A stretch of 64,000 nt of DNA from an uncultured Azospirillum sp. Lineage in GTDB: Bacteria; Pseudomonadota; Alphaproteobacteria; CACIAM-22H2. The first letter of the stretch is position 1, and each line of letters starts with the position of its first letter. The position numbers and the translations under genes were made by a program. The notes under the pieces are model-generated. The model saw only the letters and a list, made by a program, of their open reading frames with translations, had not been told where the DNA came from and did not search any database. Positions 2,361 through 6,774 of this stretch are shown in pieces. The DNA is taken from NCBI GenBank assembly GCA_964416335.1, contig CAYQDN010000014.1, forward strand, positions 15,107-79,106. The letters are read 5' to 3'.

Positions 2361-2395
2361 CGGGCCGCAAGGCCCCTTAACGGCATTCGATCCGA

Positions 2396-2433
2396 CCCCC
2401 GCCGGGTCCCGCCCGGCGGGGGTTTCGATTCTT
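2396..2433 (+). terminator. Rho-independent terminator-like hairpin with an 11-bp GC stem (cccccgccggg / cccggcggggg) followed by TTTCGATTCTT.
   Basis: The hairpin is seen directly in the sequence. It is preceded by a second GNRA-loop hairpin, GGGCC-GCAA-GGCCC, at 2362-2375. It lies at the left edge of the AT-rich island. Confidence 0.6.
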
Positions 2434-2500
2434 ATGGACTAGTCCGTCCAATAAATTGAAAATCAAATAAAATCGATCTTTGATTGTTTTGAGGCAAAAG

Positions 2501-3535
2501 ATGAAGCGGTTCGATACGCGCCCCTACAGCGTTGCCGATTTTATCGAATGGACTGCAAATGGACTCTTGAATTTGAGCCCAGATTTTCAGCGGCGCTCGG
2601 TGTGGAAAGAGTCTGCCCGCTCGTACTTAATCGACACACTATTGCGCGGCCGACCGATTCCGAAAATATTGATCACCCAACATTTAAAGGCAGGAAAAAC
2701 CGTCCGTGTCGTTGTCGATGGGCAGCAGAGGCTTCGCGCAATTTTAGACTATGTCTCAGACTCATTTAAGATTTCCAAAGCCCACAACCCAGAATTCCCG
2801 GTCGTATACTCAAAGCTTCCTGAAGAGATGCAGGATGCTCTCAGAACTTATGAAATATCTTGCGACCTGCTTTATGGCGCTGAGTACGAAGAAATATTAG
2901 ACATCTTTACACGCTTGAACGCGTACACGGTTCCGCTTACTCAACAGGAAAAGCTGAACGCAGAGTACGTCGGCTACTTCAAGCAAACGTCCTACAAAAT
3001 CGGCTATAAATACGTCAAATACTGGTTGGATTCCGGTGTCTTAAGCCAAGATCGAATTGCTCGAATGGGGGAAGCGGAATTGGCCTCCGACCTCACAATC
3101 GCAATGCTCTTTGGCGTTCAAACAAGCAAATCGATTCCGACATATTACAAGCGTTTTGAAGACAACGACACTGCGCTCAAAAATGCTGAGGTTCGATTTG
3201 ATCGAGTCATGTCGATAGTTGGCGCCATATATCCAGTGGCAGAACTTAAAGCGTCGATCTGGAAGAAGGGGCCGTTGTTCTACACCCTTTTTGGAATTGT
3301 CGCTCACAGCCAGTACGGAGTTGCTGGCGTCATTTCAGATCGTCCGAAAATCAACGAAAAGGCGCTTGCTAAGACCCGACAGCGCTTGGATGAAATTGGC
3401 GCGCTTCTGGACCGAAGTCCGACGACCCTCAATAGGGATCAGTTAAAATTCGTCGATGCGTCAAAGCGGCGCACTGCGGACACAAAATCAAGAGCATTCC
3501 GCATCGCATATGCGTGCAAAGAGCTGATCAAATAG
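2501..3535 (+). CDS. DUF262 / ParB-like nuclease-domain protein, of the GmrSD/BrxU N-terminal domain type. It is stand-alone, with no DUF1524 HNH-like domain.
   Basis: The N-terminal motif LSPDFQRRSVW (FQR..W) and the DGQQRL motif (nt 2717-2734) are hallmarks of DUF262. A GAGG RBS lies at 2491-2494 before ATG 2501. The gene sits inside a low-GC island. Confidence 0.8.
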   Translation: MKRFDTRPYSVADFIEWTANGLLNLSPDFQRRSVWKESARSYLIDTLLRGRPIPKILITQHLKAGKTVRVVVDGQQRLRAILDYVSDSFKISKAHNPEFPVVYSKLPEEMQDALRTYEISCDLLYGAEYEEILDIFTRLNAYTVPLTQQEKLNAEYVGYFKQTSYKIGYKYVKYWLDSGVLSQDRIARMGEAELASDLTIAMLFGVQTSKSIPTYYKRFEDNDTALKNAEVRFDRVMSIVGAIYPVAELKASIWKKGPLFYTLFGIVAHSQYGVAGVISDRPKINEKALAKTRQRLDEIGALLDRSPTTLNRDQLKFVDASKRRTADTKSRAFRIAYACKELIK

Positions 3536-3556
3536 CCACAAGTCGGTTTCGCCAAA

Positions 3557-4237
3557 ATGGCCCGCCTTCCAATTACAAGGGTTCCACTTGCTAAGCTCGA
3601 GAAGCATCTTAAGAGCATCGAGAAAATTGACTCAAACAATAGAAAGAGACTACTTCCGAAGCTGGCGCCCATTACGGGTGGCCATGCGCCGATACTATCG
3701 GTGGTGGCCCGCAAACAGAAAAAGTTGGAGCTAGAAACTCTGACAGAAGGACTCTACCTAGCAGTGCATAGAGAATTCGAGGAATTTCTCGAGAGAATAT
3801 TTATGCTTTATCTATCAAGATCAAATTACGTATCGATGTTGGGGGTTAAGGCCCTTGTGCAACCAAAGTCAGAAGAGCACGCGCGCAAATTGTTGAAGGG
3901 CGCTCATCGGGGTAGAGTTGACTGGAACGACACGGGGGTAGTGGCGGATAGAGCGGATATTTATTTTAAATCCGGACAACCATTCTCAGTTGTAATACGT
4001 CCGCGCCAAGCGATTCTCAAGGAAATGCAAATCATAAGGAACCGAGTTGCACATAGCAGCGGCGAAGCTGAAACGAAATTTCAAAATGTCGTGACTGCTT
4101 ATTTCTCGGTACCTCCAATCAATAGAGTTCAGCCTGGAGAATTTCTAAATCTTCCAGCCAAAGCGACGCCATCAATTTCAAATTTTCACTATTTTATTTC
4201 CGTAATTAGAGCGGTGTCTCGAGGCTGTACAGTTTGA
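3557..4237 (+). CDS. Hypothetical protein with a canonical HEPN-type Rx4-6H motif (RNRVAH). It is a putative HEPN RNase partner of the DUF262 protein.
   Basis: The motif IIRNRVAHSSGE lies at residues 161-166 (nt 4037-4054) and is followed by an alpha-helical region. A 21-bp gap separates it from the DUF262 gene. It has the same low-GC composition, and no other recognisable domain was found by eye. Confidence 0.45.
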   Translation: MARLPITRVPLAKLEKHLKSIEKIDSNNRKRLLPKLAPITGGHAPILSVVARKQKKLELETLTEGLYLAVHREFEEFLERIFMLYLSRSNYVSMLGVKALVQPKSEEHARKLLKGAHRGRVDWNDTGVVADRADIYFKSGQPFSVVIRPRQAILKEMQIIRNRVAHSSGEAETKFQNVVTAYFSVPPINRVQPGEFLNLPAKATPSISNFHYFISVIRAVSRGCTV

Positions 4238-4310
4238 TGGTAATTGGACAAATAGCCTTTTAGTGTAGTGCGATTGCTAACAAACGTCAGAAACCGTTGT
4301 TCCTAGAATT

Positions 4311-5087
4311 ATGACCCAGACCGATCTCCTGATCGACAATCCCGCACCCGGCGTGCGGCGCCTCACGCTCAACCGGCCGGCCGCGCGCAACGCGCTGTCG
4401 ACCGACCTGCTCGGCCTCGTCGCCGACGCGCTCGACGCCGCGGCGGACGACGACGAGGTCCGCGCGGTCGTCCTCACCGGCGGCGAGAAGATCTTCGCGG
4501 CCGGGGCCGACATCAAGGAACTCGCCAGCCGCAACGCCGTGACCGCCCTGCTCGACGCGCGCGTGGGCCACTGGCAGCGCATGCGCCGCTTTCCCAAGCC
4601 CGTCGTCGCCGCCGTGTGCGGCTTCGCACTTGGCGGCGGCTGCGAGCTTGCCATGCATGCCGACATCGCGATCGCCGGCGAAAGCGCCAGGTTCGGCCAG
4701 CCGGAGGTCAATCTCGGCGTCGTGCCGGGTGCCGGCGGCACGCAGCGCCTGGCGCGCATCGCCGGCCAGCAGGTCGCGATGAAGCTGATCCTGTCGGGCG
4801 AGATGATCTCGGCAGCAGAAGCCCACGCCTGCGGGCTCGTCGCCGAAATGGTTCCCGACGCCGATGTCGGCGCGCGCGCGGTCGCCCTTGCCGCGAAGAT
4901 CGCCGAGAAGCCGGTCCTCGCGATCCGGCTGGCCAAGGAACTGGTGCTCGCCGCGCGCGACGTGCCCCTCGAGCAGGGCCTGCAGTTCGAGCGCAAGGCG
5001 TTCGCCACGCTCGTCGCCAGCGAGGATTTCAAGGAAGGGGTCGCCGCCTTCATCGAGAAGCGGCCGGCCAAATTCAAAGGACGCTGA
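4311..5087 (+). CDS. Enoyl-CoA hydratase/isomerase (crotonase family)
   Basis: The sequence VLTGGEKIFAAGADIKEL and the crotonase fold signature are present. The protein is 258 aa. Confidence 0.85.
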   Translation: MTQTDLLIDNPAPGVRRLTLNRPAARNALSTDLLGLVADALDAAADDDEVRAVVLTGGEKIFAAGADIKELASRNAVTALLDARVGHWQRMRRFPKPVVAAVCGFALGGGCELAMHADIAIAGESARFGQPEVNLGVVPGAGGTQRLARIAGQQVAMKLILSGEMISAAEAHACGLVAEMVPDADVGARAVALAAKIAEKPVLAIRLAKELVLAARDVPLEQGLQFERKAFATLVASEDFKEGVAAFIEKRPAKFKGR

Positions 5088-5899: not shown

Positions 5900-6774
5900 C
5901 CGTCCCCCTTGAGCTTGCGCTCGCGGTAGAAGACGTAGATGCCCGCCGCGACGACGACCGCGGTTCCGGCCAGCGTCGCCGGGCTCGGAACGTCGCCGAA
6001 CAGCGCGAAGCCGAACAGCGCCACCCAGACCATCTGCACGTAGACGTAAGGGGCGATGACCGAGGCGCGCGCGTAGATATAGGCTCGGCTCAGGCAGTAG
6101 TGCCCCATCGTTCCGAACGCACCCATGCTGGCCAGCAGCAGCCATGCCGCCATGTCCGGCGTGCGCCAGACGAACGGGACGGTCGCCGAGAAGATCGCCG
6201 CCCCGACGACTCCCGATATGGCGATGCCGATGTCGGGGCTGTCGCTGCTCGCGAGGGCCCGCGTCATCAGGTGGAAGCAGGCGTTGAGGGCCGCACACGC
6301 AAGGCAGAGGAGTGCCGCCCAGTGCATCGAATCGCCGGTCGGCCGGATCACCAGCAGCACGCCCACGAAGCCGACCGTGACGGCGGCCCAGCGGCGCGGG
6401 CCGACCTTCTCGCCGAAGAAGAAAAACGCGATCGCGGTCAGGATCAGCGGCATCGTGAAGCTGATCGCCTGCGCGTCGACCAGCGGCAGGTAGCGCAGCG
6501 TCGTGAAGAACATGAACGTGATGAGGCTGATCAGGACCGCGCGGCCGATCTGCAGGCCCGGCCGGTTCGTCGCGAAGGACCGCCGCAGGCCGCGCCGGTA
6601 GATGAAGGGCAGGATCACCACGACCTGGAAGAAGTAGCGGCCCCAGACGACCTGCAGCGGGTGATATTCGCGCGTCAGATACTTGGCGACCGTGTCCAGC
6701 ACCCCGAAGCACAGCGTCGTTCCGCAGACCAGCAGGATGCCGATCCAAGCCCGGCTTTTCGGTCGGTCGTTCAT
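5896..6774 (-). CDS. EamA/DMT-family transporter (RarD-like)
   Basis: A 10-TM hydrophobic profile and EamA-type repeats. Confidence 0.75.
   Translation of the reverse strand: MNDRPKSRAWIGILLVCGTTLCFGVLDTVAKYLTREYHPLQVVWGRYFFQVVVILPFIYRRGLRRSFATNRPGLQIGRAVLISLITFMFFTTLRYLPLVDAQAISFTMPLILTAIAFFFFGEKVGPRRWAAVTVGFVGVLLVIRPTGDSMHWAALLCLACAALNACFHLMTRALASSDSPDIGIAISGVVGAAIFSATVPFVWRTPDMAAWLLLASMGAFGTMGHYCLSRAYIYARASVIAPYVYVQMVWVALFGFALFGDVPSPATLAGTAVVVAAGIYVFYRERKLKGDG

Follow-up and report, generated by a model that had tools for sequence, protein, structure and literature searches.

A horizontally acquired two-gene DUF262-HEPN cassette in an uncultured Azospirillum sp., a predicted conflict module with PD-T4-2 architecture

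A 64,000-nucleotide stretch of an uncultured Azospirillum sp. (assembly GCA_964416335.1, contig CAYQDN010000014.1, positions 15,107 to 79,106; hereafter, the window) contains a conspicuously AT-rich segment of 1.9 kb between livF and a gene for an enoyl-CoA hydratase. The segment carries a gene for a DUF262 protein (ORF1), followed by a gene for a small protein with a HEPN-type RNxxxH motif (ORF2). Was this segment inserted here from elsewhere, and what would two such proteins do together? We found that the segment is a horizontally acquired insertion and that its two genes form a conserved pair. With a probability of roughly 0.68, we consider it to be a self-contained two-gene conflict cassette with the architecture of the anti-phage system PD-T4-2, in which ORF1 would serve as the sensor and ORF2 as the ribonuclease (RNase) effector. 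Coordinates are collected in Table 1.

The segment stands apart from its surroundings in composition. The G+C content in 300-bp windows is 0.43 to 0.52 across positions 2400 to 4350, compared to 0.64 to 0.75 in the flanks. Positions 2425 to 4310 have a G+C content of 0.462, whereas other 1,886-bp windows of the 64 kb have 0.655 ± 0.022 (z = −8.7), and the segment is the sole place in the window where the 500-bp G+C content dips under 0.55. An initial annotation, made from the sequence alone, had put the value by eye at the mid-40s to 50%, in agreement with the computed 46.2%. The unusual codon usage that it described is also evident: the G+C content at third codon positions is 0.545 in ORF1 and 0.432 in ORF2 versus 0.87 to 0.92 in five neighboring genes, and the codons TTA, ATA, and AGA, nearly missing from host genes, are employed in the island genes. 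Two plus-strand open reading frames (ORFs) occupy the island, with 21 nt between the ORF1 stop and ORF2. The open reading frame listing and the sequence bear out this layout, as they do the positions given for the DGQQR motif of ORF1 and for R161 and H166 of ORF2.

To determine whether this composition reflects an insertion, empty sites were sought via homologs of the flanking enoyl-CoA hydratase, and the contigs of three relatives (82 to 88% identity) were inspected. Two of these, L088 and L089, are syntenic with the window across genes for a periplasmic binding protein, two permeases, livG, livF, the hydratase, Sel1, EamA, urate oxidase, and a transthyretin-like protein, with livF and the hydratase gene only ∼400 bp apart. 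BLASTN homology to both contigs runs through the tail of the host terminator (TTTCGATTCT), stops at window positions 2432 to 2435, and restarts inside the hydratase gene at 4319 (L088) or 4333 (L089), the ATG being located at 4311. The distance from the terminator tail to the hydratase ATG is 13 bp in L089 and 34 bp in L088, in place of the 1.9-kb cassette in the window. In these relatives, whose hydratases are 88% identical, the cassette is thus missing at exactly the same point, and the insert at about 2436 to 4310 is a true insertion. The cassette was acquired horizontally, as the initial annotation had proposed, and the strong G+C contrast suggests little amelioration and, therefore, recent acquisition. 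All contigs with an identical hydratase or ORF1 belong to the same organism (99.99 to 100% identity) and bear the island, including those of the NCBI metagenome-assembled genome GCA_016195065.1.

The borders are close to the coordinates first proposed. The left edge does follow a strong terminator hairpin, which lies outside the insert and is kept in L088, L089, and the third relative, L090. The right edge had been placed at the ribosome binding site of the hydratase gene, and no Shine-Dalgarno sequence is visible ahead of its ATG at 4311. Searches of the island borders for a tRNA, an Rfam family, a flanking direct repeat, or a terminal inverted repeat gave nothing, no target-site duplication is visible at the insert borders, and no integrase occurs among the neighboring genes, all consistent with the earlier remark that no integrase, tRNA, or direct repeat marks the insertion. 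As a separate observation, the 34 bp at the empty site of L088 (positions 5969 to 6002, matching ∼2436/4310 of the window) form a tandem repeat with an ∼20-bp unit (ATTCTGATAGGCTGAACGCC / ATTCTGATAAGCTGAACGCC), while the corresponding site of L089 holds only 13 unrelated bases. The repeat could have been left behind by an insertion or excision in the past, or it could be a mere local duplication.

ORF1 matched the Pfam family PF03235 (GmrSD_N/DUF262) with 77.2 bits, above the cut-off of 33.2 (E = 2.5e-21; residues 32 to 163 of a 351-aa translation), and neither ORF1 nor ORF2 matched the DUF1524 His-Me nuclease domain in Pfam. The prediction of a DUF262 protein devoid of DUF1524 was thus upheld. 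The start codon is the ATG at 2501 rather than the TTG at 2480, and the N terminus that follows, MKxFDTR, is common to all homologs. The protein consists of a DUF262/ParB-Srx head (approximately residues 1 to 165) and an all-helical C-terminal domain (approximately residues 166 to 344); it has the ParB/sulfiredoxin fold, with BrxU and SspE among its top structural matches. In an alignment of the window protein with 24 homologs, the motifs QR (Q30-R31), DGQQR (residues 73 to 77), and FxxxN (F136/N140) are invariant in 25/25 sequences, and the C-terminal half likewise contains many invariant residues. Judged by its sequence, ORF1 is a stand-alone DUF262 protein for which binding or hydrolysis of nucleoside triphosphates (NTPs) is predicted.

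The best PADLOC models for ORF1 were NsnA of the Menshen system (5.8e-29) and then PD-T4-2_A (1.5e-19). The consensus of the ORF1 family matched NsnA over residues 4 to 274 (3.9e-37) and PD-T4-2_A over residues 10 to 236. Because these matches reach past the DUF262 head, the helical domain is partly common to NsnA and PD-T4-2_A. According to a 2025 study, this helical domain, "ParBDB," is a module for DNA binding that NsnA, DndB, GmrSD, and SspE share. Relatives of the head alone occur in phages: approximately 100 large lytic phages (∼150 to 177 kb, mostly infecting Klebsiella or related enterobacteria) encode ∼150-aa proteins that match only the N-terminal head of ORF1 at ∼25% identity (e.g., Klebsiella phage PMBT1, NC_042138.1, positions 96497 to 96949). 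The phage-borne head may serve as a decoy or an inhibitor, among other possibilities.

The second protein was harder to place. As a single sequence, ORF2 had no usable match in Pfam, PADLOC, NCBIfam, PHROGs, or the PDB sequences, and a word-indexed search returned only ORF2 itself. The resulting impression of an orphan was overturned by an exhaustive HMMER search, which recovered 789 cluster representatives at E ≤ 1e-3, mostly 200 to 220 aa in length and ∼30% identical. The R, N, and H of the RNxxAH motif are invariant in 71/71 homologs from the loci described below; among 51 diverse representatives, R and H never vary and N is conserved in at least 90%. According to the HEPN survey, active HEPN RNases typically have a polar residue following R. 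In the window, R161 is encoded by nucleotides 4037 to 4039 and H166 by nucleotides 4052 to 4054.

The AlphaFold2 model of ORF2 (predicted local distance difference test score [pLDDT], 93.3; predicted template modeling score, 0.90) has the published HEPN topology; structure prediction was among the checks suggested in the initial annotation. The protein is all-helical. Helices span residues 8 to 32, 49 to 87 (bearing E64 and E75), 143 to 165, and 169 to 182, with an insert at 88 to 142. The RNxxAH motif sits at the end of helix 143-165, ahead of the loop to helix 169-182, as the HEPN survey places it. The invariant E75 on helix 2 belongs to a family consensus of E-x3-R (E-NFL-R), with a spacing of E75-x4-R80 in the window protein. 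In a structure comparison, the top six matches were HEPN proteins (1jog, Z = 9.4; 8xdj, 9.3; 7ae2, 8.9; 5yep, 8.8; 1wwp, 8.7; and 1ylm, 7.9), and toxins of HEPN-MNT pairs were among the best. The best non-HEPN bundle (6y07, rank 7) also scored 7.9, equal to the sixth HEPN protein, so that the margin of the top hit is ∼1.5 Z.

Other searches with ORF2 gave nothing or weak matches. A profile search with the ORF2 family against PDB sequences returned nothing; Foldseek with the ORF2 model against PDB returned nothing at E ≤ 0.001, its best match being an unrelated receptor (E = 0.26), with HEPN toxins only at E values of 1.4 or worse. Among the 51 representatives, weak Pfam matches were to HEPN_RiboL-PSP (21 proteins; best, 7.4e-6), HEPN_Swt1 (10), HEPN_Cthe2314 (6), and HEPN_Apea (3), and the weak PADLOC matches of the family were to HEPN-containing models (RTasHEPN, CARF-HEPN, Csx1/Csm6, AbiD, and Cas13a). 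ORF2 is, therefore, predicted to be a HEPN-fold endoribonuclease with an intact RNxxxH site and metal-independent RNase activity.

The length of ORF2 bears on this model. NCBI annotates a 177-aa version with an apparent GTG start at 3704, which we rejected because it would lose helix 1 of the HEPN core. The N-terminal 49 residues align with homologs and are modeled as helix 1 (pLDDT of 98 for residues 11 to 30), and the 226-aa form is also backed by the Logan gene call. The stretch skipped by the shorter version (3557 to 3703) corresponds to positions 1266 to 1412 of L083, NCBI JACQAH010000111.1.

Could the cassette be a decaying, nonfunctional remnant of a past transfer? The window ORF2 diverges more than any other member seen (mean, 23%, and maximum, 30% identity to the locus homologs), departs from the consensus at seven positions conserved at ≥80% (Y67, H71, V101, R120, V121, T126, and V164), and lacks a visible Shine-Dalgarno sequence, and its shorter NCBI annotation fits the same picture. 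Both ORFs are, however, full length and uninterrupted, every invariant residue of both families is kept, the N-terminal residues of ORF2 align and form a confident helix 1, and the G+C contrast suggests recent acquisition. Decay is, on this evidence, a highly improbable explanation.

A different division of roles would make ORF1 the effector, as a ParB-like nuclease or a type IV restriction-like enzyme acting on modified DNA, with ORF2 as a noncatalytic specificity or regulatory subunit. In GmrSD, BrxU, SspE, GrwAB, and TgvAB, it is the DUF1524 domain that cuts, not DUF262, and this His-Me domain is absent from both proteins of the cassette. Moreover, a catalytic rather than a scaffolding role of ORF2 is favored by the absolute conservation of its R, N, and H. 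We consider this arrangement improbable.

To examine whether the two genes belong together, genome contigs were scanned for ORF1 homologs. The single ORF1 sequence retrieved nothing; an alignment-based scan, with one genome per species, yielded 80 loci in about a dozen phyla, spanning Alpha-, Beta-, and Gammaproteobacteria, Bacteroidota, Ignavibacteria, Actinomycetes, Chloroflexota, Planctomycetota, Patescibacteria, Nitrospirota-like lineages, Spirochaetia, Acidobacteriota, Deinococcota, Poribacteria, and Binatia. At 73/80 loci, the next downstream ORF on the same strand was an ORF2 homolog (200 to 220 aa). Counted from the stop codon of ORF1, the closest in-frame start of ORF2 lay at −14 to +17 nt in 68/68 loci measured, 16 of which had a 4-nt overlap. 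The ORF1 and ORF2 distance matrices of 69 pairs were strongly correlated (Mantel r = 0.875, reached by 0/999 permutations), with ORF2 as the faster-evolving partner (mean identity of 33% among ORF2 homologs and 52% among ORF1 homologs). ORF1 and ORF2 are thus a conserved, codiverging unit, and the pairing on which the initial annotation had made its proposal depend withstands the neighborhood analysis.

No third gene is conserved among the 137 nearest flanking ORFs of the homologous loci. Their Pfam matches were led by phage integrase (5) and HTH_3 (2) and included a few restriction-modification enzymes and one transposase, the rest being unrelated housekeeping functions. Both a third component and a defense-island setting were rejected on this content; the co-occurrence with defense islands that had been envisaged at the outset was found neither in the window nor, in general, at the other loci. 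The cassette nevertheless has the marks of an accessory element elsewhere: the G+C content of the ORF1 homolog is below that of its own locus in 77/80 cases, by up to 29 points, and plasmid copies exist, such as that on a conjugative Glutamicibacter plasmid, where the pair adjoins a Fic/VbhA toxin-antitoxin pair, recombinases, and insertion sequence elements.

More distant pairs of DUF262 and Rx4H proteins also occur in temperate phages, at accessory positions. In Escherichia coli phage vB_EcoM-689R6 (L081, positions 2977 to 4688), a DUF262 gene and a gene for an RNxxAH protein lie right after the integrase gene, near the icd attachment site; the partner aligns weakly to the ORF2 family, with its LTEG, W, and RNxxAH motifs in register. 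Assignment of this pair to the PADLOC PD-T4-2 system was ruled out, as NsnA scored above PD-T4-2_A and the partner had no match. In the P2-like Klebsiella phage ST16-OXA48phi5.4 (L092, positions 2863 to 4766), a DUF262 gene and a gene for an Rx4H protein lie between tail genes; this partner carries RGDYAH, yet has no detectable homology to the ORF2 family. These cases suggest that DUF262 proteins were repeatedly paired with different HEPN-like partners. A single 463-aa protein, P0172, joins the C-terminal two-thirds of an ORF1 homolog to an ORF2 homolog: it is N-terminally truncated, its residues 3 to 252 resemble ORF1 residues 103 to 344 (39% identity), and its residues 290 to 453 resemble ORF2. 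This one case could be a real fusion or an artifact of assembly, frameshift, or gene calling; if real, it would support a physical complex of ORF1 and ORF2.

The same gene order invites the closest rival explanation, namely, a toxin-antitoxin or addiction module in which ORF2 is a HEPN toxin and ORF1 its antitoxin, stabilizing the mobile DNA that carries them rather than defending against phages. The putative neutralizer gene comes first and the HEPN gene second, with tight translational coupling, as in antitoxin-toxin pairs; HEPN-MNT toxins are among the best structural matches to ORF2; one plasmid copy lies beside the Fic/VbhA pair; and the cassette stands alone as an insertion amid housekeeping DNA. 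Nevertheless, a simple antitoxin would need far less than a strongly conserved 344-aa NTPase that has a helical domain and an invariant DGQQR motif, ORF1 is the slower-evolving partner, and the sole tested system of the same architecture, PD-T4-2, gives phage defense. We therefore rate the addiction module as unlikely, though less so than a nuclease role for ORF1 or a decayed remnant. The distinction is not absolute, since many toxin-antitoxin-like pairs act as abortive-infection systems, and the two readings overlap.

PD-T4-2, identified in E. coli ECOR65 (Vassallo et al. 2022; PMC9519451), is listed as "DUF262, HEPN" and consists of two ORFs spanning 1,540 bp. It protects against T4 when cloned, and its deletion from the native strain raised T4 plaquing (PMC9519451). 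HHpred assigned PD-T4-2A to DUF262 (99.7%) and PD-T4-2B to HEPN_RiboL-PSP (97.8%) (PMC9519451), and reviews put the system under both DUF262 and PF18735 (PMC10952713). Earlier, the 2013 HEPN survey had reported "Ribo L-PSP-HEPN ... operon with ParB" (Anantharaman et al.; PMC3710099), and a 2025 survey of DUF262 neighborhoods again recovered PD-T4-2 as a class. The initial annotation knew of no named defense system that pairs a DUF262 sensor and a separate HEPN effector, a view that these reports contradict. A categorically new defense architecture could be argued from the silence of Pfam, PADLOC, NCBIfam, and PHROGs on ORF2 and from the fact that PADLOC would annotate no system at the locus, but the validated PD-T4-2 has exactly this composition in two genes, and the published ParB operon, the listing of PD-T4-2 in reviews, and the recovery of PD-T4-2 in 2025 speak against novelty; such an architecture is very unlikely indeed.

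The cassette resembles PD-T4-2 in being a two-gene operon with a stand-alone DUF262 gene first and a small HEPN gene second, lacking a DUF1524 nuclease and a third gene, and residing in mobile or accessory DNA. HEPN_RiboL-PSP, the HHpred family of PD-T4-2B, is also the Pfam family most often matched by ORF2 relatives. The two differ in extent: ORF1 and ORF2 together span 1,737 bp versus 1,540 bp, and the HHpred match of PD-T4-2B ends near residue 162, whereas ORF2, with 226 aa, is apparently about 60 residues longer.

Several observations weigh against the assignment of the cassette as a PD-T4-2-like defense module. The PADLOC model PD-T4-2_B misses ORF2 and its family consensus and matches 1/51 relatives (E = 0.15), and PD-T4-2_A aligns to only residues 17 to 175 of ORF1 (profile positions 39 to 207 of 363), with NsnA scoring higher; the ORF1 family consensus covers profile positions 39 to 277 of 363. 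In the hidden Markov model (HMM) searches, ORF2 stayed below the threshold of every curated HEPN model; the window protein matches only DUF6548 (E = 0.14), and the family consensus fares no better (HEPN_RiboL-PSP, E = 0.15, 12.4 bits versus a cut-off of 28.4). The unusual divergence of the window ORF2 and its lack of a visible Shine-Dalgarno sequence count here as well, as does the location of the cassette outside any defense island, with mostly housekeeping neighbors elsewhere. Finally, no mechanistic study of PD-T4-2 was found in the literature searched. From the PD-T4-2_B miss and the length gap, it follows that ORF2 belongs to a different, longer HEPN family, a separation based on models and tables. 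From the partial PD-T4-2_A match and the absent PD-T4-2_B match, it follows that any transfer of function from PD-T4-2 relies on shared architecture instead of orthology. These matches do not establish that the cassette belongs to the PD-T4-2 family proper; rather, it is a divergent variant of the same two-part design.

Comparison to other systems delimits this design further. Like ORF2, RiboL-PSP-HEPN proteins (PF18735) have a conserved Rx4-6H motif and occur in an operon with ParB (PMC3710099), but ORF2 and its consensus fall under the Pfam cut-off and lack a fusion to an endoribonuclease L-PSP domain. GmrSD, BrxU, and SspE share with ORF1 a DUF262 head with the QR, DGQQR, and FxxxN motifs, and their logic, an NTP-driven DNA sensor controlling a nuclease, is probably alike. 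Each of these enzymes carries a DUF1524 His-Me DNase at the C terminus of one polypeptide, whereas the cassette has none, and its adjoining effector is a predicted RNase. NsnA of Menshen, the best PADLOC match to ORF1, has the same DUF262 and helical ParBDB architecture, and the proposed Menshen effectors are mostly RNases. Menshen, however, requires the NsnB ABC-ATPase and the NsnC inPIN-nuclease; neither is present in the cassette or beside the 80 homologous loci, and the 137 flanking ORFs show no enrichment of an ABC-ATPase or NsnC family. In HEPN-MNT (HepT/MntA) type VII toxin-antitoxin systems, a minimal nucleotidyltransferase partner AMPylates the toxin, whereas the partner in the cassette is a DUF262 NTPase, and no nucleotidyltransferase domain or MNT gene was found in the cassette.

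How would such a pair operate? In GmrSD, BrxU, SspE, TgvAB, and GrwAB, DUF262 is described as a sensor of DNA or its modification, and NTP binding or hydrolysis regulates the attached nuclease; mutations in DGQQR abolish defense in such systems. For the RNase effectors of Menshen, the proposed sensor is the DUF262 protein. By analogy, ORF1 may be both sensor and switch, combining the DUF262 NTPase head with a helical domain of the type described as DNA binding in NsnA, GmrSD, and SspE. ORF1 and ORF2 are probably translated off one transcript, often from overlapping stop and start codons, and would probably form a complex, in which ORF1 would hold the HEPN RNase inactive in the uninfected cell. 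On meeting invading DNA, possibly modified phage DNA as in GmrSD, BrxU, and SspE, ORF1 would shift conformation upon NTP binding or hydrolysis and release or activate a HEPN dimer. The active dimer would then cut cellular and/or phage RNA, stopping translation and blocking phage production, possibly with the loss of the infected cell.

A stronger version of this proposal, which we advance tentatively and at somewhat less than even odds, is that the ORF1/ORF2 family constitutes a distinct and very widespread DUF262-HEPN branch, in which an NTP-dependent, ParB-like sensor of DNA gates its RNase partner directly, the two proteins making up a minimal complex that links DNA sensing to the destruction of RNA. 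The family comprises ∼790 clusters at 50% identity in about a dozen phyla, on plasmids and chromosomes, and PADLOC 2.0 and the Pfam HEPN families do not detect its ORF2-type partner. To our knowledge, such gating of an RNase by DNA sensing has no mechanistic precedent among ParB/Srx-fold proteins. If the branch is real, an arms race with phage inhibitors could be the reason why the HEPN partner evolves faster (33% versus 52% mean identity).

The two-part architecture of DUF262 with a separate HEPN protein is already known, and the cassette represents no new category of biology. What sets it apart is the ORF2 partner family, currently unmodeled in Pfam, PADLOC, NCBIfam, and PHROGs, yet very widespread. 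If the proposed function holds, the locus offers a clean natural example of a minimal DUF262-HEPN defense cassette, caught as a recent insertion with borders resolved at the base-pair level and matching empty sites in relatives. The PD-T4-2 design would then be much more widespread and diverse than annotation models capture, and new HMMs for the ORF2 family would improve defense-system annotation across many phyla. As a compact, strongly coevolving pair with one possible natural fusion, it would also be a convenient model for the control of an RNase by a ParB-like NTPase.

Table 1. Positions of the cassette, its genes and motifs, and the adjoining host terminator in the window
Feature	Position	Strand	Remark
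Host terminator hairpin	2395..2423	+	12-bp perfect stem, 5-nt loop, T-rich tail; from inverted-repeat and terminator scans; fold z = −4.4
Inserted AT-rich cassette, whole	2436..4310	+	∼1,875 bp; G+C 0.46 versus 0.655; edges from empty-site relatives
Cassette leader, AT-rich	2436..2500	+	GAGG Shine-Dalgarno sequence 8 nt before the ORF1 ATG
ORF1, 344 aa	2501..3535	+	DUF262/GmrSD_N ParB-Srx-fold NTPase head (predicted NTP binding/hydrolysis) and all-helical C-terminal domain
DGQQR motif, ORF1 residues 73-77	2717..2731	+	DUF262 NTP-binding/hydrolysis motif; role from literature
ORF2, 226 aa	3557..4237	+	Predicted HEPN-fold RNase; conserved partner of ORF1
R161-N162-R-V-A-H166 in ORF2	4037..4054	+	Rx4H catalytic motif of the predicted HEPN RNase; from homolog conservation
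Cassette 3′ tail	4238..4310	+	Up to the enoyl-CoA hydratase ATG (4311); without terminator

The noncoding parts of the cassette carry few recognizable signals. A simple sigma-70 scan of the leader gave no promoter site; the arrangement TTGAAA-N17-TTTGAT, picked by eye, is a candidate promoter. In the 3′ tail, the plus-strand terminator scan was empty, and only a weak stem was found (z = −1.6), with no T run. Because there is no terminator between 4238 and 4311, while in the relatives the hydratase ATG lies 13 to 34 bp past the strong terminator, the insertion may have changed the transcription of the hydratase gene, with possible read-through from the cassette.

Upstream of the cassette, a G+C-rich stretch of ∼370 bp (2063 to 2432) extends from the livF stop to the terminator hairpin and is 83 to 91% conserved in the three relatives, including L090, where an AMP-binding ligase gene replaces livF upstream. 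It had no Rfam match. The stretch holds a strong Shine-Dalgarno sequence (AAAGGAGGTGA) and a GTG at 2241 that opens a 39-aa ORF (2241 to 2360), and the gene call for L089 likewise places a 39-aa gene in the matching stretch. This conserved stretch may encode a small protein or leader peptide, or it may act as a cis-regulatory RNA, tied to the paaF-like hydratase gene.

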